53,813 nucleotides of DNA from NCBI GenBank assembly GCA_963575745.1, contig CAUYUJ010000286.1, positions 62,001 through 115,813 of the forward strand, given 5' to 3'. The stretch's first letter is position 1, and each line of letters begins with the position of its first letter. A model generated the notes under the pieces. That model saw only the letters and a program-made list of their open reading frames with translations, was not told the DNA's origin and made no database searches. The stretch comes from Prorocentrum cordatum (lineage: Eukaryota). Shown here piece by piece: positions 1 to 35,548 of this stretch. The position numbers and the translations under genes were made by a program.

Positions 1-450
1 AGGGGGCCACGAAGGGCTGCGACGGGGCCACGAAAGGCAGCGAGATCGAGTCCTAGGTAATCTGTGAAGGAGTCCTAAGCGTGAGCGCGACTCCTGGGTG
101 CCTGGGTGTCGGGAGCGCAGCGCTGGAGTAAATTGCCAGAAATTCCAACGCAAGGGCGCTATTCTTCAGTAAATTGCAAGGAAGTCTCCAGCGATAGCGC
201 GACTCCAGAGCGCAGGAGGAGCGATTCCTTAATAAATCGCAAGGAAGTCGCAAGCGAGAGCGCGATTCTTGAATAATATGCGACGAAGTCTCGGGCGGGA
301 GCGGGGGTCCTGGCTAAATTGTGAGGAAGTCTCCAGCGGGAGCCGTTGTTGTTGTAACCCGGGGGCCAGGGGGCCAGTTTGAGCAGGAAGACTTTCCTTG
401 ACACAAAAAAAGGGTGCGAGCCCCAGGGGGGGCACTTCAATTGAAAAAAA
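1..450. repeat. Copy 1 of a ~450-bp direct repeat (end of 21-bp minisatellite plus ~400 bp non-tandem block)
   Basis: Matches 2785-3235 at offset 2783; near-identical conceptual ORFs 53..253 and 2836..3036; both end in cacttcaattgaaaaaaa. Confidence 0.9.
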
Positions 451-505
451 TATATGTGCACCGGTGTGGGGGGATCAACAACAATTATTCTTCAAGAGTG
501 AGAGT

Positions 506-507
506 TC

Positions 508-545
<38 letters not shown>

Positions 546-580
546 CCACCACCACCACCACCACCACCACCACCACCACC

Positions 581-626
<46 letters not shown>

Positions 627-689
627 CCACAACCACAACCACAACCACAACCACAACCACAACCACAACAACAACAACAACAACAACAA
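506..689. repeat. Compound microsatellite (CAA)n/(CCA)n/(CAACCA)n
   Basis: Directly visible. Confidence 0.97.
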
Positions 690-1472
690 TCATTTTACCC
701 GAACGCGTGGTGTTCTCCCCAGTGCCAGGGTTTTCATACGACACCAGGCAATACCCCCACTTCGTGGGGGGGCATTACAAGCTCTACCAAATATCCAAAC
801 GACTCTTCGCGACCACCCAAACCCAGCTTCCCGCCCTATGACGTTGGGACACTTCACTTCGTGGCGTGCGGACGACCGTGGCTACTACACTGGCGTGGGG
901 TACACACCCACAGAACCCAATGGTTTTTGGAGATTTCGGCGTGCGCGCGCGAAGAAAAAACGAATGTGTCCCGCATGGTATTATTTGACAGGGATGATGG
1001 CCCTGGCAGGTGCGCAACCGTTGTCGCAGAAGTTCGAAAAAGTTGCTCGCAAAAGCCCGTTTGACAGAAATGTTTAAAAAGTGTTGGGTTTCCTACGAAT
1101 CCGCAAGAGCGCGCGGGATGAGATTTTGACATTTTTTTGTTGAAAAACCATTGGTTTTTTGATGTTTTTATGTTAAAATCGCTTCCGAACACTAAGCTTT
1201 TGGAAGGATTTCGTCTTGCGCGCGCGAATGTCCACTTTACCTTATTTTTTGCAAGGGATTCTTGAAATTTGATTATATTAGAACAAGAAATGTCATTTTA
1301 TAGTGTTTTTTGCAAGGGAAAGCGGATTACAACAAAACAACCGGATCTGGACACACCCTTTTACCTGAGGCTTCCTCACGAAAATGATGAAAATGTGGCT
1401 GCGGCCTAGGCGCGGCGGGGGGGCGCGCACCAGGGGGCCCAACAATAATTATTCTTTAGAATAAATAATGTT

Positions 1473-1473
1473 C

Positions 1474-1554
<81 letters not shown>

Positions 1555-1569
1555 GACAACAACAACAAT
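1473..1569. repeat. (CAA)n/(CAACGA)n microsatellite
   Basis: Directly visible. Confidence 0.95.
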
Positions 1570-1797
1570 CATTGTAAAACTGTTCGCCCTCATCTGCTCG
1601 AGTGTCCAATAACGCCTATCTCCCAAACCCTCGATACCCGCCCTCTTCGTTTTCAATCGAACCCCTTCTGGGGGGACAACAACAACAACAATCATTTTAA
1701 GACTGTTCGCCCTTATCTGCTCGAGTGTCCAATAACGCGAATTTCCCAAACCCTCGATACCCGCCCTTTTCGTCTTCGATCGAACCCCTTTTGGGGG
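1567..1797. repeat. Two-copy ~123-bp tandem duplication
   Basis: aatcatt..actgttcgccc..atctgctcgagtgtccaataacgc..cccaaaccctcgatacccgccc..tcgaacccctt.tggggg occurs at ~1567 and ~1690. Confidence 0.9.
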
Positions 1798-2039
1798 GTA
1801 TACCTTTCTTCCATGCAGGCCGGGCCCCGGCAAGCGGCGGGGCGGCCGCGGACCGTCGGCCTGGCCAGCGGCAGCGCTGATCGGCGGGGCGGCCGCGGAC
1901 CGTCGACCCGACCCCAAGAGGGACGGACAGGGGACCGACCACGACGACGACGACGACGACGACGACGTCGACGACGACGACGGCGCGACGACGGCGACGA
2001 CGGCGACGACGAGCGAAAGCGAGAGCGAGAGAGAACGAC

Positions 2040-2823
2040 AGCAGGGCCACGAAGGACACTAAGTAGGCCACGAAGGGCGACAGCGGGGACACGAAGGGAA
2101 TGCGTATGGGGCCACGAAGAGCGCGAACGAGCGGGGGCCACGAAGGGCAGATAATGCGGGGCCACAGAAGGCAACGATGGGGCCACTGAGGGTAGCACCT
2201 GGGCCACGTAGGACAATGAGGGGGCCACAAACGGCGACAGCGGGGCCACGAAGGGCATGCACATGGGGCCACAACGGGCGCGAACGAGCGGGGGCCACGA
2301 AGGGCATACGTATGTTGGGCCGCGGAGGGTACGGACGGGGCCACTGAGGGCAGCAACGGGGACACGAAGGGCAGCGAGGGGGCCACGAAGGGCGACAGCG
2401 GGGCCACGAAGGGCATGCATATGGGGCCACCACGGGCGCGAACGAGCGGGGGCCACGAAGGGCATACATATATGGGGCCACGAAACAAAGCGAGGGGGCC
2501 ACGAAGGGCTGCAACGGGGCCACGAAGGGCAGCGAGGAGGCCACGAAGGGCTGCAACGGGGCCACGAAGGGCAGCGAGGGGGCCACGAAGGGCTGCAACG
2601 GGGCCACGAAACAAAGCGAGGGGGCCACGAAGGGCTGCAACGGGGCCACGAAACAAAGCGAGGGGGAAGGGCTGCAACGGGGCCACGAAGGGCAACGAGG
2701 AGGCCACGAGGGGCTGCAACGGGGCCACGAAACAAAGCGAGGGGGCCACGAAGGGCTGCAACGGGGCCACGAAACAAAGCGAGAGGGCCACGAAGGGCTG
2801 CAACGGGGCCACGAAGGGCAGCG
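2040..2823. repeat. 21-bp minisatellite with ggggccacgaa core
   Basis: Alternating units ggggccacgaagggctgcaac / ggggccacgaagggcagcgag / ggggccacgaaacaaagcgag; explains the long spurious ORFs in all frames. Confidence 0.93.
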
Positions 2824-3235
2824 AGATCCCGATTCCTAGGTAATCTGTGAAGGAGTCCTGAGCGTGAGCGCGACTCCTGGGTGCCTGGGTGTCGGGAGCG
2901 CGGCGCTGGAGTAAATTGCAAGAAATTCCAACGCAAGGGCGCTATTCTTCAGTAAATTGCAAGGAAGTCTCCAGCGAGAGCGCGACTCCAGAGCGCAGGA
3001 GGAGCGATTCCTTAATGAATCGTAAGGAAGTCGCAAGCGAGAGCGCGATTCTTGAATAATATGCGACGAAGTCTCGGGCGGGAGCGGGGGTCCTGGCTAA
3101 ATTGTGAGGAAGTCTCAAGCGGAAGCCGTTGTTGTTGTAACCCGGGGGCCAAGGGGCCAGTTTGAGCAGGAAGACTTTCCTTGACAAAAAACAAGGTGCG
3201 AGCCCCGGGGGGGGGCACTTCAATTGAAAAAAAAA
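2785..3235. repeat. Copy 2 of the ~450-bp direct repeat
   Basis: Aligns by eye to 1-450 with scattered substitutions. Confidence 0.9.
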
Positions 3236-3404
3236 ATGTGCCGGGAGCCCCTCCGCGCGCACCCCGCCGATCGGGCGCCGCCCCAGGGGCGCGGTGGAAG
3301 GTCTCCCCCGGGGCCGCAGGCGACCCGAGCAGGGGAGGAGGAGGAGGAGGAGGGGGAGGAGGAGGAGGAGGAGGAGGAGGAGGAGGAGGAGGAGGAGGAG
3401 GAGG

Positions 3405-3504
3405 NNNNNNNNNNNNNNNNNNNNNNNNNNNNNNNNNNNNNNNNNNNNNNNNNNNNNNNNNNNNNNNNNNNNNNNNNNNNNNNNNNNNNNNNNNNNNNNN
3501 NNNN
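3405..3504. other. Assembly gap (100 N) preceded by a (GAG)n tract at ~3335-3404
   Basis: Run of exactly 100 n. Confidence 0.99.
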
Positions 3505-4056
3505 TGGCCCGAGAGAGAGCCCCCAAAAGGGGCCCGTGGGAGCTCCAAGACGGTCCCACGCGCGCCCAAGAGCGCCCCACGGTGTAATGTTGGTGGCGCC
3601 GACAGGGGGACACGAATTAGGACCCTCCCTTCTCTGATCGATGCCTTCCTGGATGGCCCCCGAGAGAGCCAAAGATCGGCGGCGCGCCCAAAGGGGGGAA
3701 GGAGAGGGGGCGGGCCATCTCGGAAGGCTTAGAACTCCTCTGGTTTTCGGAGAAGTGTTTCAGGCCTTGCCCGAACACACAGAAATCCCTGGATCTGGGG
3801 TCAAATTGGTCCCGATGCAAAATGACAGTGGGCGTAAAGCGCCCAAACCTATCTCTCTCTCTCTCTCTCTCTCTCGTCGGCCGTCGTTGTACTCTCCGTC
3901 TCTATCTCCCCTCTCCTGCTCCGTCGTACTCCTCCTCCTCCCCTTCCTCCTCCTACTCTTTTACCTCCCCCTCCTGCTCCACCTCCTTCAGAAAACAACA
4001 TACACTTTAAAAGGATGTTTTACAAAACAACAAAAACTGATGAAACAAAAAAACGA

Positions 4057-4057
4057 G

Positions 4058-4150
<93 letters not shown>
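4057..4150. repeat. Poly(A) tract of ~94 nt
   Basis: Directly visible; length may be an assembly artefact. Confidence 0.95.
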
Positions 4151-4152
<2 letters not shown>

Positions 4153-4297
4153 TGGAGGAGACAGACTGCGAAGCGAATCCGTCCGACACATGGTTTTCAT
4201 TGCGTTGTTTGCGTATATTGTTTGTTTTGATTCGTTTGGTTCCTGGCAATTCCTTCTCTATCCTCCTAACTCGCCTCCTCGCTGCTCTCATGTACTC

Positions 4298-4805
4298 CGG
4301 CGCTGAACCCTTCAAGGCTCGCGCCACGTAGGCTTCGAGCGCAAAAACCGTCGAGCTCGCGCTCGTGGCGGTCGGGGCAGAACCGTTCGGAGCTCGTGCC
4401 AGATCGCGCTGTGAGCGCAGAACCCTTCGAGGCCCGTGCCCCCATGATCTACGGCGCTGAACCCTTCGGGGCCCGCGCCACTGGCGCTGAAGCCGTCGGG
4501 GCTGGCTTCGCGCAGGCTTCGAGCGCAGGACCCTTCGGGGCTCGTGCTCTCGAGTCTCTTGTGCTGAACCCTTCGGGGCCTGCGCGACAGGCGCTGAACC
4601 CTTCGGGGCGCGTGCCGCGCAAGTGTCGAGCGCAGAAGCCTTCGGGGCTCGCTCCCCTGAGCCTCAGAGCCCTCTGGGACCTGTGCCCACCGCGCCAGGC
4701 GCGCAGAACCCTTCGGGGCTCGCGCTCTCGCGCTCGCTGGCGCGGGGTCCGTGCCGGGGAAACCCACGGCGCAAAAACCCCGCGGGGGCTCGCACCGCGG
4801 GGTCC
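4298..4805. repeat. Degenerate ~30-35 bp tandem repeat, core gc(t/a)gaacccttcggggctcg
   Basis: More than ten recurrences of gaacccttcgggg or close variants. Confidence 0.85.
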
Positions 4806-5039
4806 GTTGTCTCGATTGTACAGTCGAGGCAATGCGCTTTTGACGAAGGGAACTGTGGTCTTCCATTGAAGCTGCGCCCTGTGCTCCAGCCCCGGCGCGC
4901 AGCATGGGCGCCGCGAGGCTTTCCAGATCTAAAGTGGAAGAGCATGTTCCACATCCCTGGCCTACAAAAGGGGGCGTCTACTTCCGCGTTCGTTTTCCAC
5001 GACAGTGTCGCACTGGTTCTATCTCTATTCGCGTCAATG

Positions 5040-5290
5040 TCTCGCGCCGCGCGCATGATAAAACATAGGGTTTCGCGCACGCAATATAGACGCGAATAGA
5101 CATTTTCATTACATAGCCACGATTCGATGCAGAAACGGATACGAATCTGAATGTAAAACAAACACGAGTTTCGAAATTAGACACGAAAGTATACACGGCT
5201 ATGAAATAGACACGGTAAGACATGTTTTGACACGGATAGACACGTCACGAAGAGACACGCAACAAAGCCCAAATCAAAATAGACACCGCG
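5040..5290. repeat. Degenerate short-period repeat with (a)atagacacg core
   Basis: Motif recurs every ~20-35 bp; related tract at ~6890-7145. Confidence 0.65.
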
Positions 5291-5570
5291 CGGCAAAAAC
5301 AAGCACGGAGTTGTTCTTGCCTTTTACCTCGCAACCCCTCTCGGCCATGCTCGGTTTACACAGCACATGCGACACTTGTGCGTCGAGAAAACGATATGCG
5401 CAAGTGCAATCACCTGCAAATCTAGCCGAGTGTATCTCCCAACAGCCAGGTGATGTCTGCTGGCCGCGATCTGGCTCGGAGGACCCCTCTGATGCGCCAC
5501 GGGGAAACCGAGACAGCGCCTACCGTGCAGCGCGGCAGACGCAAGCCAGCCGGGCTCGAACAGGAGAGTA

Positions 5571-5717
5571 GGGGGCCACACGAACCCTACCCCTACCCCC
5601 CACGATTTCCGAGGCGGAGGGTGGGGTTCACTTCGTTCGGGAGCTCACGAGCGAAGTGAACCCCACCCTCCTCTCAGAAATCGCGGGGGGTAGGGGTAGG
5701 GTTCACATGTGGCCCCC
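5571..5717. repeat. ~147-bp imperfect palindrome (foldback/MITE-like)
   Basis: gggggccaca..gaaccctacccctacccccc..ggtggggttcacttcg / cgaagtgaaccccacc..ggggggtaggggtagggttc..tgtggccccc centred on gagctc at 5641-5646. Confidence 0.9.
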
Positions 5718-8700
5718 GAGAGGGGACGACGGCCAGAGAGCGCGCCAGGGCACTCTGCTTCAGCTTTGCACCGGGTCCACTCGGTGGAGTGGCGGGAAAC
5801 GGAAAACAGACCCGCTCGGCGAGCATGTGGGATGGACGGGGCATTGAGACTGCGGGACACGGGCAACATCGAAGACAACATGGCGGGAATGCGGACGGGC
5901 GGGGCGGGCGGGTGGGTGGGGGAAGGAGGGGCGGAGAGGAGGAATGGGGAAGCGCGGGGCGGAGAGCATACGCATGGCTGGGAAGCAGCAGACACGCGAA
6001 CGAAAATGGAGGCACGGAGAGGAATGCGGGGGACCTCGGAGAGGTGGGAAAACGAGGGTCAACGAGAACTTTGCAATGATATCGGAGGGCTTACGCTGAA
6101 ATCGGGAGGAGTGCCGAGGAGGCGCGAGACTTGAGGTGGACGGAGAATAAATCAAGAATGGGAAAAATAGGGGCGGGCGTGGGAATCTTGGAACGAGGGC
6201 AGAGAAATTGACAGGGGGCCTTGGGGGGTGGGGCTCAGAAGACGTGGAAAGAGCACGCGAAACTAAGAGGGGGCGCATCGCGGAGTCGAGGGGGCGGCGC
6301 GGCGGGCGCGAACAAGGCGGGGGGAGCTGGAACGAGCGCGGTGGATATTGGGGGGAGGGAAAAGTGCGGATGAGAACGACTGACATCGGATGAATAGACT
6401 GGTCGCGCAGGAGTTCGAGAAACAATTGCGTAGAACAAAATCAAAGATGAGCCCAAAATAGCCCAAAGCACCTCCAAGATGGTGCACGAGTAGCCCACGT
6501 CACCGGAAGATTTGTCCAAGACGCCTCCAGACGGCCCATGGCGCCCTCGCCTCTCCCGCTTCTCGATGCTCGAAGACGGCCCAAGAGGCCCCTCATATAG
6601 ACCCGAAACGGCGCCAGAGGCTTCCGAGGGGACCCCAACACGGCCCAACATGGCACCAAGACGGCCCAAAACGTTTCCAACGCTTGCCAAGACGGCCCAA
6701 AACACTTCCTTTCGACACACCGTTGTTTGCCAGCTCCCCTGCGGGGAAAAGAAAAAAAAAAAACACAACATCGAGCTACATTGCAAGGGTGCTCCAATCA
6801 CAAGGGATTCGGCGATGAGTTTGACTGCTCTCCTCTGTTTGTAAGGTTGTGACACAACACATGCTGCACGGAAAACAAACGCGCGCCGCGATAAATATAC
6901 AAGACCATACATAAACACGAACGATTGCATTCTGGCAAAAATAAACACGAATTGACACGTTGCAAAAAAATACTTGTGCCACAAATAGACACGCTAGAAA
7001 TTAGATACGAATGGACATGAAAAAGAGACGAAAGCAGGCCCACTCCTGGGCCAGAATTAAACGTCTACCAAAATAGACACGAAAACCATGCCGAATATAT
7101 TTCTATAGAAAGTCGCAAACAGTATAAACACTCGAAAAACACGAGTCCATGTTGTATTTATCTGGTGGTCTGTAGGCCAGGGATGATTCGCGGAAGGCCA
7201 CCAAGACCAATAGAAACGCGGAAATCCTCGGATCTGGCAAACCGCGGGGCGCTGAAGCTGCGCCACAATGCAACTCGAACTCTTGTGGCCACATCAAAAT
7301 TATGAGCCCATACAGCAAAGTGGAAACATGGAGTTCGCAACACGCGCTAAACTCTACCACAACCAATAGAAACGCAAGAATCCGCGCAAGCAGGCGCCAA
7401 GGAAGAGAAGGCGGAGGCGGAGGGGGCGGTTGCTGATGAAGAGGTTTATTCTCGACGCAACCCATAGGCAAGAAAGGCCAGCAGCAGCAACACCACCATT
7501 ACGAGCACGAGCAGCACCAACAGCAGCAGCACCATCATCAGCAGCACGATCAGGAGCATCAACAGCACCAGCAGCAGCAGCACCACCAGCGGAATGGGAC
7601 GGGAAACGACAATACAAAGCTGACGAAATGCAATCACATCATATGATATTGAAAACGCCGATGTCGCAGAATGTGCACACTGTACAAGAGCCCTTGGACA
7701 CCAGAAACTGCCGATGTGGTTTGCTCTCTTGCGTTTGGGTTGCGCTGGCAAGACGCCCCCTGATCAGTCATCGCCCCCTCACCCTACGACGCCCCTTCCT
7801 CGGCGCCTGCGCGCGCGGACCCCGGCGTTTCGAATGTTCTGAAAGAGGTGCAGGCATTATGCGAAATACGTGTTTCCAAGTTGCTGTTTGTGCCAGTGCC
7901 TGTAAAAAGAATTGCACTAAGAGTTGCATTGGCAGTTGTAGTCGGGGCTGCAGTATGAGCCGCGGCAAGATCTGCGCCAAGAGCTCCAATAGAAGCTGTG
8001 GCCGGAGCTATCAGGGCCCAATACGGTACTTAAGGGTCAGCTGCACTGCGAAATGGAGTAAGAGCTGTAGTAACAAGTATCGCAGGAGCTGCAAAAATAG
8101 CTGCACTCTGGCAGATAGCTTCACCCGTCGCACAATGCATACCAGGAGCCACAATATGACCTGGAGCGAAATATCTAAAGAAGGCGAACTATGTCATCGG
8201 AAAATGAAGCGTGGAAAAAGCATGACGATGCACAGGAGAAGGAGCACGAGAAACGGGACTCTGCCTCCCGAATCCCCCAAACCCCCTCTCGCCACAAGTT
8301 TGATCCCTCTCTTCCTCAACCCTCCTCCGCAACTCCCACCCCCTGTTTCCTCAAATGCCCTCAGACGAAAAGGACTTGCATGGGAGTGGTCCCGAGAGCT
8401 GCAGAATCACCAGGGCAATACTAGGTATGATGGCCTATCAGGGTTTCAATCAGAGGGGGCGCTCGCGCGGATTGCAATCACACTTGTATATCTAGAATGC
8501 TAAACGATATCGGTCACTGAGAGAAGCGACGACGAGGGCTTGTAGAAGATGGACGAAGAGGAGGAAGATGAGTTGGACATGAGAACTGCAAATACTGACC
8601 ATGTTGAAACTTTTCGACCTTTGAATCTTCAACAACCGCCATCAGAAACATTCATCCTGCATCCTCCTCAACATTCCTCCGAAACCACCCTCTTCAACCT

Positions 8701-9899
8701 TCGTGGTTTAACATCCACGCCATGGGCCCATCAACATACCCCAGATCGGAAGCCCGTCCTCATGTCTAGAGGTTGCCATTTTTGAGCTAGCCCGATTTCA
8801 CCCAAAACCACATGGCCAGAGGGTTTCTATGAAGCCTCGCCGTGTTCTGAAAAGGCCCCCCCTCCCTTTTGATTTCTCACCCTCGCCCGCCACCGACCAG
8901 AAGGACCCAGGAGACTTCCAAAGGCCTCTTACTTAAAATAAAGTAATATAATTACATTATAGATATCTCAAAAAATGGGCCCCGCACAAACTGCCGAGAG
9001 GCTCCCGTACTGAAGAACCCGAGACAGCATTTATGGTTGTCTCCTGGGACTGATTAGACTGCTCCCCTCTGCGTTCCACTGCGCGCTCCTGCGCCCCCCT
9101 GATCAAAGCAACTCGCCTTGGAATGTGCTTTTGGGCACGCGGGCGCGCGAAGACGAATCAAATGCCGCGCAAGCCAAGGCGGGCCGCGCCGAAGCAGAGG
9201 GAGGAACAGCGAAGCGAGCGGCGCCGGGCCCAGGCGGAACTAGGCTCAACGCGGCCAAGATGGCGCGAGAGCCACGTCAATCAAAACTGCTGGCTGGCGG
9301 TCACGAATTTTGACGCGGCCGCCAATGGCTCGTCACCACCCTCGGCCTAAGCGCCCGCTAGTGACCCGAAGAGAAATCGAAAAGCGAAGCCTAAACCTGG
9401 AAACCCAAAGAGAGAGGGCGAGATCGATCGCGCGCCACATCGCAGGTGCAACAGGCAATCCCCGGCACAACCACACTCAGAAATGTTTTTCTTCCGAGAG
9501 GCGGACTGGCGCGACGTCGGTTCGACCGATATCCGTTTCGCCTGAACTCGCTTCGCCAGGACCCCCGCTGCCAAGACTCGTTCCGCCCACGGCTCGTCTC
9601 GCCCGACTAGCCGCGCCCAGCGCGCCGCGCGGGGAAACCTTAGCCGGGAAAGAGCACCCAGAGGTGCGGTCGCACATGGGCGGACGAACGAGCGGACCAT
9701 GAGGGGCGGGCGGGGGTTGGACCAGAGCAGGCGGGCGGGCGGACACTAACGGGCGGAAGGGCGGGAGGGCCTTCGGTTCGCTGCGGGAGCTATCTGATCT
9801 CTGAGAAGGCCTTTCGACCTCCCTATGGGGCGGTTTCTCGCGCAGTCGCGCGGCTCTCGCATCGCCAGATAGTTGCGCGCGTAGCCACAGTGGCGACAA

Positions 9900-10480
9900 T
9901 TCTCGCTACCATCATGCGAAGTGTTTGGCTCGTGCTTTGGGGCAGGGCGCTAGCGCGCGGCGCGGCTTTGCGCCCTGGGCGGGCTGCGAAGGGCTGCAAG
10001 AAAAGATTTCGCGCAGCAGGCAGGCCGCCGCTCTCGCGGGCGAGTGGGCGGGCTTCCGATGCAAAGTTGAATGATTTCCAGAGGGCGGCTGCTTGCGCGG
10101 CTCCGCATGGCCCATCTACGGCCACGCTTCAGTGCGTCTGAGGTCTGTCGCGCCGAGGACTGCGCCTGGTAGTTCGCCCTGGGTGACCACCGCTGCCTTG
10201 CTCGCGCCGCGCGCCAAGAATGGCGCGTCTTCCAAGCAACCCAGCGTTGCGTGGGGCAGCCTGAGCTCGGCGCGGATCCGCCTGCAATAGGTCATCAGGC
10301 TGGCCCCGTTTTGCACGACAAGTACGAATGCCCGATGCGTTGACTCTGCTGGTGGCCAGGGGTCTACCCCGACGTGATGGGCCACTTGCATCCACGGGCG
10401 CACCGGAGAGACGTGCTTGGATGCGCTGCGATGCCACGCAAGATGCTCGCGCCTCCAGAGCTACTGCGTCGCCGTGGCCC
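9900..10480 (-). pseudogene. Possible decayed tyrosine-recombinase (DIRS/Crypton-like) fragment
   Basis: Across frames: WMQVAHHVGVDPWPPAESTHRAFVLVVQNGASLMTYCRRIRAELRL (core-binding-domain-like), then LWKSFNFASEARPL and GRKAAPRASAL. Pattern recognition only; no catalytic HxxR seen. Confidence 0.3.
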
Positions 10481-11644
10481 CTGACATCTCGGGCCCAAAA
10501 TGGGCCGCTCGCCCCCAGGGTTGCTCGGCGCGACACCGCGGCCCTGTCTCGCGGAGAGCATCCCCTCTGGAGTGACGCGGCCCATGCGGATTGCGAAACC
10601 GCGTGGACCTCGAAGGGCGGCCGCTGGAACCTGTTGAAACAGACAAACACTTTCGACCGCGCGGTGGCCCGCGGCCTGCAGGCGATGCGATTGACGTTGG
10701 CCCCGGGGCCCCCAGCGCCATATAGACGCCGCTGCGAGCGCCAAGGGGGCCTCGGAGGGCCCCTCCTAAGCCCGGCGTGGAAAAGCGACACCGTCTCTAA
10801 GGCGAGCCCCAGGAGACGTTCGCTTCCAGGTCTGAATCGACTTTGCTGTCGGCGGACGCGTTCAAAACGCGAGTGGCGCGGGCCTGCGCACAGGCAGCCG
10901 CGGCTGCCCAAACGAGAAAGACGGGACGCCAGCAAGGCCTGCCCTCCACGGAAGCCCCCCCGCTGGCCGCGCGCGGCAAAAGGGCCCTCAAGCCATGTTT
11001 GGAATTCGAACTCGGCCCCGAACCCGAGCTTTATGTTTCACGAGAGTTCAAAGTTCGAGTTCGAACCCCGACTCGAACTCGAAATTCTGCACTCGGCAAT
11101 GTTTCAGGTTCGAGTTTGGCGCACAAGGTTTTAACTGGGACCCGGCGGTCAACCGTCAACCAGGTCACAGCCGGGACCCTCGTAGAGCTCTCGGAACGCG
11201 GAGTAGTGCCGAATACAAAGAGAAAGCTCAAATAGCAGCTTGAAACCCGGGAAAAATTATCGGTGTTATACGAGGCTCGTTCCCCCAAGTGTCTTCATAA
11301 TAATATTACAGCTAGAGACTTCAGAATTCAACAGGCCGACGCGCCAGAACCTACTACGAGTGCAGGAATACTGGAGCTGTGTAGCTTGCTTTCTGTTTGC
11401 GTTAAGTGCACGAGACAAGTATCATCTTGAAAAATCCATCCCGACGGCCGACGGTTTCCCCACGTTTGTGTTGGCAGTAATACTGCAGCTAGGGACCTGA
11501 AGATTTACAGTCAGACGCGGCACAAACCGCTCCACGTTACAGAAATCCGGGTTCCCAAAACGAATGTTCAAATCTCTCACAATCTCCAAATTAGCCTGGC
11601 GAAGGACCCAACCATATGCAGTTGTGGGTATCGCATTCGGGTGA

Positions 11645-12178
11645 GCCCCGTATGTGGGGGGGACGCATGCGAACTGCGCCACTGGGACCTTCGGTGGAGC
11701 TCCCTATGAGGCCACGAAACGCTGTACTGGGCGGGGGAGACGCATGCGAACTGCGCCACTGGGACCTTCGGTGGAGCTCCCTGTGGGGACACGAAACGCT
11801 CTACTGGGTGGGGGGGACGCATGCGAACTCCGCCACTGGGAACTCCGGGGAGCTAACTATGGAGCCACGAAACGCTTCTCTGGGTGCGGGGGGGGCGCAG
11901 AACTGCGCCACTGGGGCCTTCGGTGGAGCTCCTATGGGGCCACGAAAAGCTGCCCTGAGTGAAGGAACCGCATGCGGGCTGTGCCACTGGGACCTCCGGT
12001 GGAGCTCCGTATGAGGATATGAAACGCTGCCCTGGGGAACCGCATGGGGACTGTGCCACTGGAACCTTCGGTGTCGCTCCGTATGGGGCCACGAAACGCT
12101 GCCCTGGGTGGGGGAGCCGCATGCGGGCTGTGCCACTGGAACCTTCGGTGGAGCTCCCTGTGGGGGTACGAAACAATT
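11645..12178. repeat. ~77-bp tandem repeat, ~7 copies
   Basis: gcatgcgaactgcgccactgggaccttcggtggagctccctatggggccacgaaacgctg; gcatgc at 11665, 11742 and 11819. Confidence 0.93.
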
Positions 12179-12774
12179 GTAGAGCTCTTAATCGCGCGAC
12201 TGCTTGGAACATCGAAGGAGCTTTCTCGAGATGATCTAAGAAACTCGGAAAATTACAATGTTTAGTTTTTCTCGGTTCCCTCAAGTGTTTCGATAGTAAT
12301 ACTGCAGCTAGGGACCTGAAAATTGAACTGGCAGGCACGGAATAACGCGACACACGTGAAAAAATACCGGTCCTTGAACGAATTTTCAAAATTTGCACAA
12401 AGAAACAAAAACCGACCCGAGTCAACACATTGTCTCTTTAGGTCGGGTCTGCCAACTGGGAGCCGGCGGTAAACCGTCAATCAGATTACCGCCAGCAGCC
12501 TCGTAGAGCCCTTTGATCGCGCGGCGCTGCTTGGAACACATGGAAGAAGCTTTCGGTGATCTGAAAACCTCGAAAAATACGATTGTTAGTTTTTGCTTCT
12601 AAAGTCGGTTCCCTCAAGTGTTTTGATAATAATATTGAAGCTACGAACCTGAGAATTGGACTGGCAGGCGCGGCATAACCCACGAAACGTGAAAAAATAC
12701 TGGTTCTATTTTGAGAAAGATACAAAAACCGACCCCTAGTTCCCACATTGTCCCTTTTGGTCGGGTCCGCGAAC

Positions 12775-13751: not shown

Positions 13752-16524
13752 CTGCCAGGGGGGGCAGATCTCACAGACATGAGCCAGAGACAGAACCTCT
13801 TGGAATCCAGCGCTGCAGACAGCCCTCCTGAGCCATCCTTTTGTCAGGAGCGCGAGCGCAGGCGTCTCGTGTATGAGAAGGCCCTGTCAACCAAGAGTCC
13901 ATGGCTGCAGGCGCGTTGTCAGATGTTGCATGGGGCGGGGGATTGGATACGGCACAGGGGAGAACTGGGCGCCGGCGGTAAACCGTCAACCTTTCTCACC
14001 GCCGGGGGACTCGTAGAGCTTCCTGACAACATATAATGTCGAAAAAAATTGCAGAGAACGAACAGTTTTTCAGCCCAAGCGATTTCAGACCTCTCGATGC
14101 AACAGCCGAACGCCCCCGATGCTTCTGGATTGTCTTCTGCACGAGCTCTGTAGCTCTCCTAGAGCCCGAGTTACGTGCGTAAATCGACAGCACCTCTCAA
14201 GATGACTCGAACAATACGAATAGTTTCGCGAACCTAGCTCGAGTATCAGACCGAGTTCAGACCTCTGAATGCAACAAGCGGACGCGTCTGATGTCTCCGA
14301 ATCGATTCCTGTGATTACCAGCCCTGCAGCGCCCCTACAGCCCGAGTTTAGTGCAGAAAACCGACAGCACCTCTCAGAATGACTCGACCAATACGAATAC
14401 GAAAAGTTTAGCGGACCTAGTTCGGGCAGCAGACCGAGTTCCGAGCTCTGGATTCGACAGGCGGACGCGCCTGATGTCTTCAAATCGATTCCTGTGACCA
14501 CCAGCACTGCAGGCCCCCTACAGCCCGAGTTGAGTGCAGAAAAGACAGCACCTCTGAAGATAACTCGAACAATACGAATAGTTTCGCGATTCTTGATCGG
14601 GCAGCAGACCGAGTTCAGAGCCCTAGATTGAACAGACAAACGCGACTGGTGATTCTGAATCGGTTTCTGTAAGCATCAGCTCTGTAGCTGTCCCATAGCT
14701 CGAGTTAAGTACAGAAAACCGAGAGCGCCTGTCAAGATCACTCGAATAATACGAATAGGTTTGGCAATCTAGCTCGGCTAGCAGACCGAGTTCAGACCTC
14801 TGGATCCAAGAGACGAACGCGCCTGATCATTCTGAATCGATAAGGTGTGCTTACCAGCTCTGTAGCTGTCCTGTATCTCGAGTTAAGTCCAACATACCGA
14901 CAGCGCGTATCAAGATGATTCGAAACGGCCGATCCCGCCTGGACGCTTTTTGGGAATAAAAGGTACCCGATCGAGCTGAGATCAAGATGGCGAGCGGGAA
15001 TAAGATCGAATAATACGTGGGACCGGCGGTAGACCGTCAACCAGGTTACCGCCGGGACCCTCGTAGAGCTCTTTTCTCACACGGCGCTTCTCGGTACACA
15101 TGGAGAAAGCTTCTGGAGCGAGAAACAAAAAAATCGAAAAATCAAGTTTTTCTGTTTTTATCCAACGTCGGTTCCTCCAAGTGTTATAGTAATACTGCAC
15201 CTACGGACCTCAGAATTTGACTGGCAGACGCGGCATACCCCACTACAGGTGACAAAAATCTGGTTTCTCAAAATGAATGGTCAAATTTCTTTCAAATGTT
15301 AGCAAAACCGACCGAAAGTCACCACTTTGTCTCTTGAGGCCGGGTCGGCCAACTAGCTCCACCCCGCGCCGGAATTCCTCCAGCTCATCGACGCCGAAGA
15401 GCTAGCTCTACGAGGTACTAGGTCTCCAACGAATGGTTAAATTTCGAGAACAAAATTGTCAACCGACCAAAAGTCAGCAAAAGGTCCGTGGAGATGTTCC
15501 TTGCCAACTAGCTCTCCAGCGCCCCGGAATTACTCTTGAGCTTCCAGCAACAACTTGCTAAGGGAAGCTCTACGAGTTATTTCTGAAGGCGACCCCAGCT
15601 AGTACGAGGCAGCAAATGAGGAGGAGGCTGGTAGGTGGAGGAAAAGAGAGGACAGGATTGAGATCATGGCAAGGGGTCTTTGAAAAGCTTGCTGGGCAGT
15701 CATGCTGGTGGGAGAAATGGCACTTCTCGGAGAAAGCGCTCCGAGAATTCCTTCAGAAGGTGCTGGCAGAATGTGATGAGAGCTCACTGTGGGACCTATG
15801 CAATGTTAAGGGTGGAGGAAGCGACTTCGAGCAAGGAGGTGGAGGAGGTGTTGAGGGGGAGCGAGGATGAGGAATAACAGAAGGGAGACAGAGGAGAAGG
15901 AGATAAGCAAGGGCAGAAGAAAGCCAGAGGACTCGCATATAACTTCAAACAGGACACGGTGTGGAATCAGAAGCTCCCAGAAAAGACAGGTACCATCATG
16001 TGTCCATTCTCGGGGGACTCTCCCACTATCAAGCTCAGGGGGGAATGGTATACTCAGAATGAGAAATATCATAAAATATTATGGAAAACACATGTTCACA
16101 TGGAGACATGGTGCAATCAATATCCCATAAGACCACCATATTGAAAGATGACCTCTGGCGTCATATCTACCGAAAAGGAGACGAGGAGGCAGATCAATTT
16201 ACGTCGAGGGCTCGCGAGAGCCCAACCAATTCCTATATGTACAAAAAATACACAAATCTTAAGAACGGAGAAACCTTAGCTGCTGTCAGGGGTCACTTTG
16301 ACGGTGGGAGAAGCGTCTCTGGAAGTGTCGTGGGCTACTGGCTGCAGGGCCTAATTGTTGATCGTACCACACAGACCTCAGAATGGAGGACCTTGCAAGA
16401 GACGGGCTTGCTTCTGGGGCATGATGCGACGGCGAAGGAGTCCGAATTTATAGCGGCATTGCGGTTGTTCCAGACCGCCCGAGAGTTCACTACAAGAAAG
16501 GCGAGGCAGGAGGTGGGATTTTGA
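13752..16524 (+). pseudogene. 5'-truncated, frameshifted LINE-like ORF remnant (LINE-2) split by an A+B insertion at 13965-15579; ends in a permuted RNase H
   Basis: Pieces homologous to the 820-aa ORF: PWLQARCQMLHGAGDW vs AFVDSRRGLLMYNVEW; RRRLVGGGKERTGLRSWQ vs KRLRAGPERVGQRSWQ; QKKARGLAYNFKQDTVW vs QKLAKRLAIIYERQTVW; SGDS..LRGEW vs KGDS..LTGRW; RHIYRKGDEEADQFTSRAR vs RHEFREDNTRADELTHLAR; VRGHFDGG..GYWLQ vs CRGGYDGG..GFWLQ. Confidence 0.85.
13965..15579 (-). mobile_element. Complete family A element with a nested family B element (~15017-15417)
   Basis: Runs ctgggcgccggcggtaa ... gggaagctctacgagtta on +; its removal restores the LINE-2 reading frame. Confidence 0.88.
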
Positions 16525-19500
16525 CTTCGAATTCATGACTATTGAGGCCCACTCCTCTGATGGAGGTGCGCCATTTGTGATTATTTTGTTCAGAGCTACG
16601 CTGAGTTATTTCTTCTTATTTTGTTTTGTTCACAAGTGCACACTTCATTCTTCGGAGTTGTTACCTCACTCAGCTATACTGTGATTCTAAATTTTAGCTT
16701 CGCACGTCCCATCCTGGAAGCACGTAGGTGTTACTCTTGGCTGTGTGGTGGTCGGGGTCTCGTTTGGAGACTTCGGTGCAATGCCTCGTTTGGAGCTCGA
16801 GCCTGTGTGTCGGGACGGGCCTCGTTTGGAGTCGCGAGACGCTGCGCTGCGGGTGAGACATTCGCACAGTCTACGCAAACGCCAGAAAACAAGGTTCAGG
16901 GTTTATCGCCGGCTCCTAGTTCACTCGTAGATCTCCCCTAACAGCGTTAGCGGCGAAGCTAGAAGAGTAATGGCGTCGACCGTGAACCGTCAAGCTGGTC
17001 ACCGCCGGGAACCTCGTGGAGCTCCTTGCACGCGCACAAGTGCTCAGAATCGAAGCAGACAGCTTGTCGGAACATTTTTAGAAAAACGTCAAATTTGCAT
17101 TTTTCGACTCTCTCTAGAGAGCTGATTCTCCCTCAGACTAAAAGTTAAAACACTAATGCTGGGAGTGAAATCTAATGTTTCAAAACATGGTTCAAACACT
17201 GGGCGCCGGCGGTAAACCGTCAACCTTTTCCCGGGGGACTCGTAGAGCTTCCTGACAACATATAATGTCGAAAAAATAACAAAGAAAAAATAGTTTTTCA
17301 GCCCAAGCAATTTCAGACCTCTCGGATGCAACAGCCGAACGCCCCCGATGCTTCTGGATTGTCCTGTACGAGCTCTGTAGCTCTCCTACAGCCCGAGTTA
17401 CGTGCGTAAATCGACAGCATTTCTCAAGATGACTCGAACAGTACGAATAGTTTGGCAACCTAGCTCGAGTATCAGACCGAGTTCAGACCTCTGCATCCGA
17501 CAGGCGGACGCGTCTGATGTCTCTGAATCGATTCCTGTGATTACCAGCCCTGCAGCCCCCCCTACAGCCCGAGTTAAGTGCAGGAAACCGACAGCACCTC
17601 TCAGGATGACTCGAACAATACGAATAGCTTCGCGGAGCTAGTTCGGGCAGCAGACAGAGTTCGGAGCTCTGGATTCGAAAGGCGGACGCGCCTGATGTCT
17701 CCGAATCGATTCCAGTGATTACCAGCCATGCAGCCCCCCTACAGCCCGAGTTAAGTGCAGAGAACCGACAGCACCTCTCAAGATAACTCGAACAATACGA
17801 ATAGTTTCGCGATTCTAGATCGGGCAGCAGACCGAGTTCAGAGCTCTGATTCAACAGACAACGGCCACTGATGATTCTGAATCAGATTCTGTACGCATCA
17901 GCTCTGTAGCTGTCCTGTAGCTCGAGTTAAGTACAGAAAACCGAGAGCGTCTGTCAAGATGACTCGAATAATACGAATAGGTTTGCGGACCTAGCTCGGC
18001 TAGCAGACCGAGTTCAGACCTCTGGGTTCAACAGGCGAGCGCGCCTGATCATTCTGAATCGATTAGCTGTGCTTACCAGCTCTGTAGCTGTCCTAAAGCT
18101 CGAGTTATCTTGAGAAAACCGTCACCGCGTGACAAGATGACCCGAAACGGGCGATCCCGCCGCAGTGCTTTTAGGCAGTAAAAGGTACCCGATCGAGCTG
18201 AGATCAAGACGGCGAGCGGGAATAAGATCGAATATCACGGGAAAAAATACTAGAGCTCTAACGAATGTTCAAATTTCGAGAACAAAATTCTCAACCGACC
18301 AAAAGTCAGCAAAACTGGGCGCCGGCGGTAAACCGTCAACCTTTCTTATCGCCGGGGGACTCGTAGAGCTTCCTGACAACATATAATGTTGAAAAAAAGG
18401 AAGTTTTTTCAGCCCAAGCGATGTCAGACCTCCCGATGCAACAGCCGAACGCCCCCCGATGCTCCTGGATTGTCTTCTGCACGAGCTCTGTAGCTCTCCT
18501 ACAGCCCGAGTTACGTGCGTTAATCGACAGCACCTCGCAAGATGACTCGAACAAAACGAATAGTTTGGCAAACCCAGCTCGAGTATCAGGCCGAGTTCAG
18601 ACCTCTGAATGCGACAGGCGGACGCGTCTGATGTCTCCGAATCGATTTCTGTGATTACCAGCCCTGCAGCCCCCCTACAGCCCGAGTTGAGTGCAGAAAG
18701 CCGACAGCATCTTTTAGGATGACTCGAACAATACGAACAGCTTCGCGGACCCAGTTCGGGCAGCAGAGCGAGTTTCGAGCTCTGGATTCCACAGGCGGAC
18801 GCGCCTGATGTCTCCAAATCGATTGCTGTCACCACCAGCACTGTAGCCCCCCTACAGCCCGAGTTAAGTGCAGAAAACCGACAGCACCTCTCAAGATGAC
18901 TCGAACAATACGAACAGTTTCGCGATTCTGGATCGGGCAGCAGACCGAGTTAAGAGCTCTGGATTCAACAGACGAACGCGACTAATGATTCTGAATCGAT
19001 TTCTGTACGCATCAGCTCTGTAGCGGTCCTATAGCTCGAGTTAAGTACAGAAAACCGAGAGCGCCTGTCAAGATGACTCGAATAATACGAATAGGTTTGC
19101 GGACCTAGCTCGGCTAGCAGACCGAGTTCAGACCTCTGGATGCAACAGACGAACGCGTCTGATTATTCTGAGTGCAGAAGGTGTGCTGACCAGCTCTGTA
19201 GCTGTCCTATATCTCGAGTTAAATCCAATATACCGTCACCGCGTGACAAGATGACCCGAAACGGGCGATCCCGCCGCAGTGCTTTTTGGCAGTAAAAGGT
19301 ACCCGATCGAGCTGAGATCAAGACGGCGAGCGGGAATAAGATCGAATATCGCGGAAAAAAATACTAGAGCTCTAACGAATGTTCAAATTTTGAGAACAAA
19401 ATTTTCAACCGACCAAAAGTCAGCAAAAGGTCCGTCGAGATTTTCTTGCCAACTAGCTCTCCAGCGCCCCGGAATTACTGGGCGCCGGCGGTAAACCGTC

Positions 19501-32400: not shown

Positions 32401-32811
32401 GTTTGCGGACCTAGCTCAGCTAGCAGACCGAGTTCAGACCTCTTGGTGCAACAGGCGAACGCGCCTGATCATTCTGAATCGATTAGCTGTGCTTACCAGC
32501 TCTGTAGCTGTCCTGAAGCTAGATTTATCTTGAGAAAACCAACATTGCCTGTCAAGATGACCCGAAACGGCCGATCCCGCCTGCCTGCTTTTTGGCAGTA
32601 AAAGCTACCCGATCGAGCTGAGATCAAGATGGCGAGCGGGAATAAGATCTAATATCATGGGAAAAAATACTAGAGCTCTAACGAATGTTCAAATTTTGAG
32701 AACGAAATTTTCAACCGACCAAAAGTCACCAATAGGTCCGTCGAGATTTTTCTTGCCAACTAGCTCTCCAGCGCCCCAGAACTGGGAACCGGCGGTGAAC
32801 CGTCAACCTGG

Positions 32812-35311
32812 TTTTTTGGGTTTTCGGACCGATGTTCCAGCTGGGTCAACTGGCGGCCAGAATCTGCTGCGCCAAATGCACAACAGCGCTAGTAAGCGCC
32901 TCAGCAGCACTAAGTTCGGCGTCGGTTATCGTAGCACCTTCCAGGCACCACGCGGCTTCGCACACATCCCTCCAAACGAGAGGCATATTAGAGGACACGG
33001 AGTAGGGGGAGGAGGAGGGGAGAGGAGAACACGAGACACTCTTATTACAATCATATCTATGATTGATGAAACCCACTTGAAGCCAAAAGCCGCACCCCGT
33101 CCCTTTGCTGCAAACTCCCCCATCGTATCCACCACGACAGGCGATAGGTTGTAGAAAGTCCTCAAAGCTAAACATGTACTCATACTGGTTGTAGAAGCAG
33201 TGGCCCTCGCGGGCCAAATGTGTAAGTTCATCAGCCCGTGTGTTGTCTTCCCTGAATTCATGCCTATATAAATCTTTCCCCAATCCAGAACTTCGAATAC
33301 CCAGATCCCCCGCAGCACGATCTAGAACGTTAATGCATCGGTCCACACGTCTCTGGTATTGTTTATTGTCGCATCGCCATCGTCCCGTCAGCCAGTTATT
33401 CACAAGTAAACTATCCCCTTTGATTTCTACCCCGAATCCTGGACTTACAATGTCCCACACCGTCTGCCTCTCGTAGATAATCGCCAACCTCTTAGCAAGT
33501 TTTTGTGTATCTTTCTCACTCGGTATACGCTCAGTATCCCCCACCATCTCGGGAGGTGTATAGTACGCCGCTGTGCCCTTCCAGTTCTGAACAAAATACA
33601 GGAATACCTTTGGTTTATCGTACATGCACAAAAGATTCTGCCACATCTCCAGGAAAGAACGATAGCTCGTCTCGACACTCGACCACCAGGAGCTGCCATA
33701 TGTAAGAATGTATGGATACTGCCAGCTACGCTGGCCCACTCTCTCTGGACCAGCCCTCAACCTCTTGATCGTGGATGCCTGAGTACGGTTGCCGTGTAGT
33801 CGGCAACATTCTGCCATAATGTCCCTGCGCGTTGTCCACTCAACATTGTACATGAGCAATCCCCTTCTGCTGTCCACGAAAGCTCTGTTATCAGGACTGC
33901 AGTGATCAATATCATGAGCTGGGAGGGAGAGTGTGGGCAGTAGAGCCGCCGACCCACTCCCTGAATCAATATTCTCAGAAGCCAAAGAATCACCGCCAAA
34001 CCCTTGTCGTAGCCCCTGCAGTCGTCGTCTCTTCAAGGTCTGCCTGTTGAAGCTGGCGTCCTGGGTCGCAATGTGCCTGGCGAGCTCCTGTGAAACATCC
34101 TCCAGCCTATCACTCAATGCAATACTCTCAGCAACAACTTGTGAGATGACTCCCGCGAAAGATTGCGAGGGTGTATCAGCAAATCGTACTCTCTTCTGGG
34201 AAGGCCCAGGATCAGCAGCAAACGTGGCGACGTGTGCCTGGGGTGTTCCCTCGCATTCGGGGCTTCCCCAGGACTTGCGTCCTGACGCCTCCTGCAAAAT
34301 TTGGCGACGTTGCCTGAGGTGTTCCCTCGCACTCGGGGCTTCCTCAGGACTTGCGCTCTGACGCCATTGAACATGTCGACGGTGACAATCTGACAAGATA
34401 TACTCCTTGATACTTCTCATCATCGTCCAGCTCTTCCAAGCAATCATCTGTACAGCTGATGGGAAATTGGCCTCAGCGAAATGCTGTCGCACCTTGTGGA
34501 GCATCTCAGGGCGCCAGACACCCCATGTTAGCGAAGACGGCTTGCGACGGCACCACATACGCAGCAGACACATGCCCTCAAAAGCATGTATGGTTCGCAC
34601 CGCCTCAGCATCAAGCGTGAACATCTCTCCCGCATATAGCAGACGCGATTGGACCTGAGCTTGATAACGACGATATTTGTGTTTCAGCGGTACCGATCTG
34701 CATCCAAAATATGATATCTGAGCGAAAAAGGATCCTCTGGCGCATTTAAGTCGATGTGCTAGGTCCTCGTGTCCCTCGAGAAAGCTTTTACAGACAACGC
34801 AGCCCAGAATAGAAAGCGACTCCACCGGTGTGAAGGCAACTCGTTGGTCTCCGACTTGGGCCAAAATCGGCGTAGGGTCCTGGGTCCCGCATACGAGTAT
34901 CTGCAAGGATGATGACTTCCAACTCATTCCCCAGTCTGCTAAAGCAATGGTGAAAACATCAACGATCTTCTGGATTTCCTTAGCATTCCTCCCCACAAGG
35001 TACAGATTATCAGCCCAGAGCGCATGGTTGTACGTGTGGTAGGTAGCGGGGTTGTGGGGGTCGGGGATCTCGTACCCTATGTTCTGAGCGTCCAAAGAGG
35101 CAACTACAGAGGCCCACATGGCGATAACCACGATGTTGAAAGCAAGCGGGCTCTCAGTCCCACCCGTCCTCAAGCTCTTATCCCAAGAAACCCCATCCAG
35201 TTGGATCCCCTCGAAGACGATGGTGCAATTTGTAACAGCGAGCGGCTCGATAAGTGCATATTGTAAGCGTGCTGGGATCTCTAGTTTATCCATAGCGCGT
35301 GCAAGCATACT
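32812..35311 (-). mobile_element. 5'-truncated non-LTR (LINE-like) retrotransposon insertion, LINE-1
   Basis: Absent from the duplicate site at 41241-41280; ~30-bp 3' UTR ending aaaacccaaaaaa on the minus strand; ORF begins inside the RT domain. Confidence 0.9.
32846..35308 (-). CDS. N-terminally truncated LINE polyprotein: RT subdomains 4-7 and thumb, long linker, circularly permuted RNase H (820 aa)
   Basis: LRTGGTESPLAFN (QG..SP motif), LWADNLYL (YxDD position), WGMSWK, LSILGC, thumb EDLAHRLKCARGSF..VQSRLLYAGE; C-terminal GDS / H..REDN.RAD / YDGG / DAE motifs. Confidence 0.9.
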   Translation of the reverse strand: MLARAMDKLEIPARLQYALIEPLAVTNCTIVFEGIQLDGVSWDKSLRTGGTESPLAFNIVVIAMWASVVASLDAQNIGYEIPDPHNPATYHTYNHALWADNLYLVGRNAKEIQKIVDVFTIALADWGMSWKSSSLQILVCGTQDPTPILAQVGDQRVAFTPVESLSILGCVVCKSFLEGHEDLAHRLKCARGSFFAQISYFGCRSVPLKHKYRRYQAQVQSRLLYAGEMFTLDAEAVRTIHAFEGMCLLRMWCRRKPSSLTWGVWRPEMLHKVRQHFAEANFPSAVQMIAWKSWTMMRSIKEYILSDCHRRHVQWRQSASPEEAPSAREHLRQRRQILQEASGRKSWGSPECEGTPQAHVATFAADPGPSQKRVRFADTPSQSFAGVISQVVAESIALSDRLEDVSQELARHIATQDASFNRQTLKRRRLQGLRQGFGGDSLASENIDSGSGSAALLPTLSLPAHDIDHCSPDNRAFVDSRRGLLMYNVEWTTRRDIMAECCRLHGNRTQASTIKRLRAGPERVGQRSWQYPYILTYGSSWWSSVETSYRSFLEMWQNLLCMYDKPKVFLYFVQNWKGTAAYYTPPEMVGDTERIPSEKDTQKLAKRLAIIYERQTVWDIVSPGFGVEIKGDSLLVNNWLTGRWRCDNKQYQRRVDRCINVLDRAAGDLGIRSSGLGKDLYRHEFREDNTRADELTHLAREGHCFYNQYEYMFSFEDFLQPIACRGGYDGGVCSKGTGCGFWLQVGFINHRYDCNKSVSCSPLPSSSPYSVSSNMPLVWRDVCEAAWCLEGATITDAELSAAEALTSAVVHLAQQILAAS

Positions 35312-35548
35312 GTAGAGCTCTTTTCATGCACGGCGATCGTCGGAGCACATGAAGAAAGCTTCTGGAACGCGACAGAAAAAACTCGAGAAAATAGGTTTTT
35401 TTTCATTTATCCAACGTCGGTTCCTGCAAGTCTTTTGATAGTAATATTGCAGCTACGGACCTGAAAATTTTACTGGAAGACGCGGCATAACCCACTACAC
35501 GTGAGAAAAATACCGGTTCTCAAAATGAATTGTCAAATATCTTTCGAA

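Follow-up and report, generated by a model that had tools for sequence, protein, structure and literature searches.

The locus described here raises the question of whether a ribonuclease H (RNase H) domain whose motifs follow one another in the wrong order is a damaged remnant, a chance resemblance or a natural circular permutant. It lies in a 53,813-nt stretch of the Prorocentrum cordatum genome (GenBank assembly GCA_963575745.1, contig CAUYUJ010000286.1, positions 62,001 to 115,813 of the forward strand), hereafter called the window, whose numbering is used for all coordinates. On the minus strand, an open reading frame (ORF) of 825 aa extending from stop to stop (32846..35323) corresponds to the 3′ portion of a 5′-truncated insertion of a long interspersed nuclear element (LINE). 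A first-pass annotation, made from the letters alone, had proposed that the polyprotein of this LINE ends in a permuted RNase H. Our analysis indicates that the last ~200 residues encoded by the ORF of this L1-like LINE very probably constitute one RNase H of the archaeal/plant-L1 type ("aRNH", RVT_3/RNase_H), the gene order of which is circularly permuted.

Order of RNase H motifs in the window ORF

In the translation, the final ~200 residues of the ORF contain the motifs GDS, HxFRExNxxAD, DGG and AEL, in this order, followed by the stop. The C-terminal part reads ...VEIKGDSLLVNNWLTGRW...RHEFREDNTRADELTHLAR...CRGGYDGGVCSKGTGCGFWL...ATITDAELSAAEAL... and ends at a TGA codon (32846..32848); the translation of 32846..35323 on the minus strand thus matches exactly the four motif blocks in the order quoted by the first-pass annotation. 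The four acidic residues that it had listed as retained are all present in the window copy and aligned with the canonical residues. The predicted order of secondary structure elements is b4-aB-aD-b5-aE-b1-b2-b3-aA instead of the canonical b1-b2-b3-aA-b4-aB-aD-b5-aE. The domain is therefore a permuted homologue rather than a canonical member of the family, since the order is swapped in two AlphaFold2 (AF2) models and in 112 of 112 relatives carrying both halves.

The half bearing the DG and AE motifs was not found upstream of GDS, where the AF2 model consists of helices and disorder only. Comparison of the upstream 100 residues with the N-terminal half (N-half) by hhalign revealed no similarity (E 0.63) and no vestige of the N-half of a first copy, which bears out the initial impression that no such motif precedes GDS. 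Likewise, no similarity was detectable by hhalign between the region of the basic helix preceding b4 and aA. In the family alignment described below, K or R is frequent at positions 82/83 of this basic helix, which is not predicted in the model of a distant family member (P0122).

Homology of both halves to RNase HI

A profile was built from the family alignment A1, comprising 70 sequences with an overall identity to the window sequence of 19–49%. It matched the RNase HI of Halobacterium (PDB 4e19) with an E-value of 3.5e-9 in two stretches arranged in swapped order: profile positions 149–219 aligned with residues 65–127 of the chain, containing the DG-bearing strand and the AE-bearing helix (13.1 bits), and positions 61–136 aligned with residues 134–198, containing GDS and HxxRExNxxAD (25.1 bits). 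Further matches of this profile were LC11-RNase H1 (3u3g), Sulfolobus tokodaii RNase HI (3aly/2ehg), 4h8k and 3hst, with Rv2228c among these.

Similar results were obtained with a canonical RNase HI profile of 121 aligned proteins and 135 template positions. In hhalign comparisons, the family profile in its native order gave a match of 68 columns (template 66–133, score 101.3) and a separate weak match of 55 columns (template 2–58, E 8.9e-4). When the halves were swapped in silico, a single match of 131 columns was obtained, covering template positions 2–134/135 with a probability of 99.3%, an E-value of 8.5e-21 and a score of 123.0; the first-pass annotation had anticipated exactly such a full-length match for the half-swapped version. 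Taken alone, the C-terminal half (C-half) matched template positions 65–134 with an E-value of 3.2e-20. In an hmmsearch, the swapped profile recognised one domain in P0180 (residues 78–224, 59.6 bits), and the profile in native order gave 44.6 and 9.1 bits.

The Pfam profile RVT_3 was detected at E<=1 in 31 of 49 relatives and exceeded the gathering score in four of the 49; in 30 of the 31 matching relatives, the best stretch was the C-terminal half of the RVT_3 profile. In P0086, positions 2–57 of RVT_3 aligned with residues 162–220, downstream of the protein's own GDS (residue 71) and RExN (residue 123). In these comparisons, both halves thus show significant homology to archaeal-type RNase HI at the profile level. 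The reading of the domain as a permuted RNase H is supported both by the swap test and by the family-wide order in the 112 proteins with two halves.

Predicted structures

The AF2 model of the window domain had a mean predicted local distance difference test score (pLDDT) of 86.4, with values of 93–98 for the core blocks, and a predicted template modelling score (pTM) of 0.73. The C-half is predicted to form strand b4 with the GDS motif (residues 101–107), helices aB (110–116) and aD (125–145), strand b5 (157–159) and helix aE with the Asp134 equivalent (166–176). The N-half is predicted to form strands b1 with the Asp10 equivalent (195–209) and b2 (212–225), a low-confidence loop, strand b3 (254–264) and helix aA with the Glu48 equivalent (270–295). 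For P0122, which is only 27% identical to the window domain, the model (pLDDT 85.7, pTM 0.79) has the same b4-aB-aD-b5-aE-b1-b2-b3-aA order.

The halves superpose singly on solved RNase HI structures at 20–31% identity. Residues 148–221 of the P0122 model were aligned with residues 67–133 of 4e19 at a root-mean-square deviation of 2.5 Å over 65 residues (31% identity, Z 3.8), and residues 6–136 with residues 38–140 of 3aly at 3.2 Å over 77 residues (30% identity), the two identities being unusually high for such matches. Such half-domain superpositions of predicted models may add support but prove nothing alone. Given the homology of both halves and the confident single-domain models, the four carboxylates would be expected to meet at one site.

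The loop between b2 and b3 of the window domain corresponds to a Ser/Pro-rich insert, which is carried by the subgroup to which the window copy belongs (e.g., P0002, P0003, P0006, P0016) and is missing from distant members.

Conservation of the permuted order and selection

A phmmer search with the last 264 aa of the ORF against 1.84 billion representative proteins revealed 146 relatives at E<=1e-3, including 56 at <=1e-10. The order of the halves was surveyed in these 146 matches and 23 cluster members (169 proteins in total) using one hidden Markov model (HMM) per half, built from A1. Both halves were found in 112 proteins, and the C-half preceded the N-half in all 112, with no case of the canonical order; as the half HMMs derive from the same family, detection of the halves is partly circular, but their order is not. 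In 45 proteins only the C-half was detected, nearly all of them being fragments that end soon after it, in 10 only the N-half, and in two neither. A second copy of either half was found in none of the 169 relatives, and the two complete tandem RNase H domains that the first-pass annotation had considered as an alternative were thus not observed in full-length relatives. In the full-length ORFs P0004, P0016 and P0070 (1299–1455 aa), the domain occupies the extreme C-terminus and ends shortly beyond the AEL helix.

The four catalytic carboxylates are nearly invariant in A1: the D of GDS is present in 62 of 62 sequences, D169 in 69 of 70, D205 in 70 of 70 and E274 in 63 of 67. Among the residues of the aRNH signature, N165 is present in 69 and H159 in 61 of 70 sequences. 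Comparison of the window copy with L001, a copy on a metagenome contig, over 200 domain codons gave a nonsynonymous divergence (dN) of 0.23 and a proportion of synonymous differences (pS) of 0.68, corresponding to a saturated synonymous divergence (dS) of ~1.8. Therefore, dN/dS is well under 1, and the RNase H domain is under purifying selection. Across the sequences compared, the swapped half order is a family trait and not damage.

Two relatives carried species labels, both from EukProt: P0123 is labelled Karenia_brevis, and P0176, which shares 77% identity with the window sequence, is labelled Pyramimonas_sp. No other named sources were present, and the remaining relatives derive from ENA, JGI or Logan assemblies. 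Part of the stretch was recorded in 20 listed sequencing runs, six of which contained half or more of its words; these runs were mostly marine metagenomes, and no RNA dataset was among them.

The LINE element and its insertion

An empty paralogous site elsewhere in the window served to define the boundaries of the insertion (the features are listed in Table 1). The flank 32500-32811 corresponds to 40943-41254 at 99.0% identity, and the flank 35312-35800 to 41272-41757 at 98.0%, these being parts of an uninterrupted paralogous unit. Since the empty site is 98–99% identical in both flanks, the host repeat unit had been duplicated before the insertion took place. The junction alignment revealed a 2.5-kb insertion that replaced 18 bp of the target at the 41254-41272 site, with no target-site duplication in the single insertion checked. 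The sense strand of the insertion starts inside the reverse transcriptase (RT), and its 3′ end is an A6 tail. The window copy is a dead, 5′-truncated insertion from a recently active family.

Table 1. Features of the LINE copies and of the permuted RNase H domain in the window
Feature	Position	Strand	Evidence or remark
Insertion of the LINE, 5′-truncated and dead on arrival, with its ORF still open	32812..35311	-	Empty paralogous site
Stop TGA and 34-nt 3′ untranslated region (UTR), ending ...GAAAACCCAAAAAA	32812..32848	-	Junction alignment
RT remnant (P0001 residues 40-142)	34898..35206	-	Pfam RVT_1, E 0.038, 14.1 bits, under cut-off
RT motif C, W-A-D-N	35006..35017	-	Usual form F/Y-A-D-D
Basic helix preceding b4 (..LAKRLAIIYE)	33470..33517	-	AF2 helix 74-89, pLDDT ~93
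RNase H C-half, encoded first (b4, aB, aD, b5, aE)	33191..33448	-	Profile, hhalign and AF2
Codon for D of GDS (Asp70 equivalent)	33413..33415	-	Model residue D108
Codon for b5 His	33260..33262	-	Within first-encoded C-half
Codon for D of RADE (Asp134 equivalent)	33230..33232	-	Model residue D169
Linker, old C-terminus (aE) to old N-terminus (b1)	33161..33190	-	AF2 residues 183-192, block pLDDT 82-87, beside short strand 181-184
RNase H N-half, encoded last (b1, b2, loop, b3, aA)	32849..33160	-	Profile, hhalign and AF2
Codon for D of YDGG (Asp10 equivalent)	33122..33124	-	Model residue D205
Ser/Pro-rich loop between b2 and b3, ~28 residues	32978..33061	-	AF2, low pLDDT
Codon for E of DAEL (Glu48 equivalent)	32915..32917	-	Model residue E274
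Second LINE copy, older, decayed, diverged subfamily	15582..16968	+	Boundaries from flanking host-repeat matches

Because the element ends 34 nt past the stop that follows the AEL helix, this stop represents its natural terminus and does not result from disruption by another insertion. In L001, with a protein identity of 69%, the ORF terminates at the equivalent position of the alignment and is followed by a homologous 3′ UTR. This short 3′ UTR (...AGCTGGA..GGT.CGAAAACCCAAAAAA; 32812..32845 on the minus strand and 1212..1251 in L001) is conserved despite the 69% protein identity; it may represent the 3′ end recognised by the RT of the element.

Owing to the 5′ truncation, neither the APE endonuclease nor the beginning of the RT is present in the window copy. 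For the family as a whole, the arrangement of an N-terminal APE endonuclease followed by RT in one ORF is evident from the alignment of a profile of full-length members (A4) with human L1 ORF2p (E 4.7e-21), in which profile positions 6–608 correspond to residues 38–690, that is, APE and RT up to the palm. This profile was needed for the comparison, since a phmmer search of the PDB with P0004 alone gave no match. In relatives, RVT_1 scored 25–50 bits (34.3 for P0004 and 50.1 for P0025). RT motif C has the form W/Y-A-D-N, with A-D-N invariant in nine of nine RT-bearing A4 sequences (residues 736–739 in P0004); it resembles the GDN motif found in certain viral RNA polymerases. Of the distinct LINE lineage postulated from the window copy, what is demonstrated is a coherent family that, among solved structures, lies nearest to human L1 ORF2p.

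The second, older copy on the plus strand was detected by tblastn (33.75% identity over 80 aa, E 1.3e-7). It contains GDS in another frame, followed by RHIYRKGDEEAD, FDGG, ESEF and a stop at 16522..16524 (ORF 16075..16524), and thus has the same half order. This copy is frameshifted, its RExN signature is altered, and ~445 nt separate the stop from the resumed host repeat.

Proposed function and origin

The host element belongs to an L1-like LINE family encoding an APE endonuclease and RT, with the putative RNase H at the C-terminus of the ORF. The RNase H chain is predicted to start at b4, to continue through aB-aD-b5-aE and a ~20-residue linker to b1-b2-b3, and to close with aA. In such a chain, the first-encoded half would provide Asp70 (GDS) and Asp134 (RExNxxAD), and the last-encoded half Asp10 (DGG) and Glu48 (AEL). 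By analogy with other LINEs bearing RNase H, the enzyme may degrade the RNA template of the RNA:DNA hybrid in the course of target-primed reverse transcription.

Circular permutations usually arise by duplication followed by loss. One could therefore propose a tandem duplication of an acquired aRNH domain with subsequent loss of the outer halves; this origin is deduced from the usual route, since neither a two-domain intermediate nor an upstream vestige of the N-half was found. Whereas the motif order and its conservation in the family, the 3′ end of the element, the homology of both halves, the predicted order of structural elements and purifying selection are demonstrated here, a single assembled active site, enzymatic activity, a role in retrotransposition and an origin by duplication are inferred. 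We regard the chances as roughly even that the family encodes a catalytically active, natural permuted type 1 RNase H, born by tandem duplication, and that this enzyme marks a widespread undescribed clade of marine-protist LINEs with an A-D-N RT.

Alternative explanations

Several observations weigh against a permuted RNase H. The window sequence alone fell under every curated cut-off of Pfam and NCBIfam: it matched RVT_3 with an E-value of 0.19 and 12.1 bits (cut-off 21.6), and only in the GDS part, and the NCBIfam search returned sub-threshold rows only. The evidence for the N-half is weak by itself, as this half alone matched canonical RNase HI (template 2–58) with an E-value of 1.9e-4 and a probability of only 47.6%, its share of the A1 match to 4e19 amounted to just 13.1 bits, and Pfam detected RNase H in the N-half of none of the 30 fragments bearing it. 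In structural searches, Foldseek found no match in the PDB at E<=1e-3; the RNase HI of S. tokodaii (3aly_A) was listed no higher than rank 39, with 84 columns aligned. The RNase H rows of VIA-align covered half a domain each at Z 3.7–4.1, no higher than unrelated rows, and were preceded by generic alpha/beta folds with Z 4.9–5.7. Finally, no ancestor with two tandem domains was present among the 169 relatives. Failure of sequential aligners to recognise the whole domain is what would be expected for a permuted chain. The top VIA-align rows, namely the CinA C-terminal domain, SPOUT/RlmH-like proteins and HcgF (5–14% identity), were rejected as relatives; they represent common alpha/beta arrangements that share the sequential order. 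A search of the ESM Atlas gave no usable match, and a length-limited search for homologous proteins with residues 560–825 of the ORF gave none.

If the resemblance to the RNase H motifs were due to chance, the weakness of the single sequence (E 0.19 against Pfam and 0.79 against PDB 4e19) would find an explanation, but E-values of 3.5e-9 and 8.5e-21 at the profile level, with the catalytic residues aligned, refute this notion, and we assign it a negligible probability. Hardly more credible is a region that forms no functional unit, being either what remains of a tandem pair of RNase H domains or the product of rearrangement or chimerism: tandem ancestors probably existed, duplication and loss being the usual route of permutation, yet the order is common to all 112 two-half proteins, a second copy of a half is absent from all 169 relatives, conservation extends to the position of the stop and to the 3′ UTR, the domain is under purifying selection, and no trace of an N-half occurs upstream. 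The half order would also permit complementation between two ORF2 molecules through 3D domain swapping, with the active site formed only in a dimer. This arrangement appears quite unlikely in view of the conserved ~20-residue linker between aE and b1, which was modelled confidently (pLDDT 82–98), and of the pTM values of both monomer models.

The most serious competitor, although still an improbable one, is a permuted RNase H fold that no longer cuts and acts as a spacer or binds nucleic acids, comparable to the inactive "connection/tether" of retroviral RT. Retroelements with dual or degenerate RNase H folds have been described (PMC5348765). The RT of the family, with its ADN motif, is atypical too. 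Nevertheless, 88–100% of the 62–70 aligned sequences with a residue at the respective position retain the carboxylates as well as the signature Asn and His of aRNH, despite identities of 19–49%, and inactive folds normally lose their catalytic residues. The permuted RNase H with an intact set of catalytic residues is thus the explanation that we prefer.

Surrounding sequence

Between positions ~14000 and 51000, the window consists mostly of arrays of ~177-bp tandem repeats (2–10 copies each) within a longer unit that recurs at least 15 times. The region 1..12200 is richer in G+C (up to 61%) and contains other tandem repeats, with (CAA)n at 507-689, tandem repeats of the GGGGCCACGAAGGGC type with periods of 21, 42 and 158 bp at 2044-2825, and 77-bp repeats at 11654-12174. 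The dinoflagellate spliced-leader motif was not found in the window, an absence that has little bearing on the taxon.

Significance and comparison with known systems

RNase H is among the best-studied enzyme folds and a classic model of protein folding. If the interpretation proposed here is correct, a natural permutant that is under selection and has an intact DEDD site would show how far the connectivity of this fold can be rewired, and would offer a case study of permutation by duplication within a mobile element. It would also mark a LINE family overlooked by standard domain annotation; Pfam makes no domain call in the window copy, and the protein deposited for the stretch is a 70-aa fragment. 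The permutation shifts the point at which the nuclease is tethered to RT from b1 to b4, which may alter the placement of the nuclease on the RNA:DNA hybrid in target-primed reverse transcription.

LINEs bearing RNase H are themselves known; what appears to be new is that the archaeal-like RNase H of a LINE is circularly permuted across a whole family. No account of a retroelement carrying a permuted RNase H came up in full-text literature searches. One paper retrieved as a possible report (PMC13524379) was discarded, as its "permut" refers to statistical permutation tests. In a structure-based screen of the AlphaFold DB, CIRPIN identified two RNase H-like domains related by circular permutation (PMC13552848), and its authors found no earlier ribonuclease permutation in the literature except T2/BECR. 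The CIRPIN pair is likewise a natural permutation in an RNase H-like fold; in the main text the proteins are not named, and neither LINEs nor a conserved DEDD site is mentioned.

According to PMC5348765, aRNH domains are fused to plant Ta11-type L1 elements, to L1 and Utopia elements of oomycetes, and to the Tat, Chronos and Archon long terminal repeat (LTR) elements, and the Repbase elements bearing aRNH come from plants and oomycetes only. The present family extends retrotransposon archaeal-like RNase H beyond these two groups. Like the plant and oomycete elements, it carries an acquired archaeal-like RNase H behind RT, located in LINEs at the C-terminus of the ORF encoding APE and RT; unlike them, described with the canonical order, it is permuted.

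Among solved structures, human LINE-1 ORF2p (8uw3, 8sxt, 9k6g) comes nearest to the full-length profile, followed by R2 proteins (E ~1e-9), but, unlike the family described here, ORF2p has no RNase H domain. Motif C of the human RT is FADD, compared with W/Y-A-D-N in this family. With archaeal-type RNase HI (Pfam RVT_3, PF13456, and RNase_H, PF00075; 4e19, 2ehg/3aly, 3u3g), the domain has in common the signatures GDSxLV and HxxRExNxxAD, the carboxylates of the DEDD set and a profile match in both halves. It differs from these enzymes in its permuted chain, which starts at b4, ends with aA and contains a new linker between aE and b1, and, in the subgroup of the window copy, in the Ser/Pro-rich insert of ~28 residues between b2 and b3.

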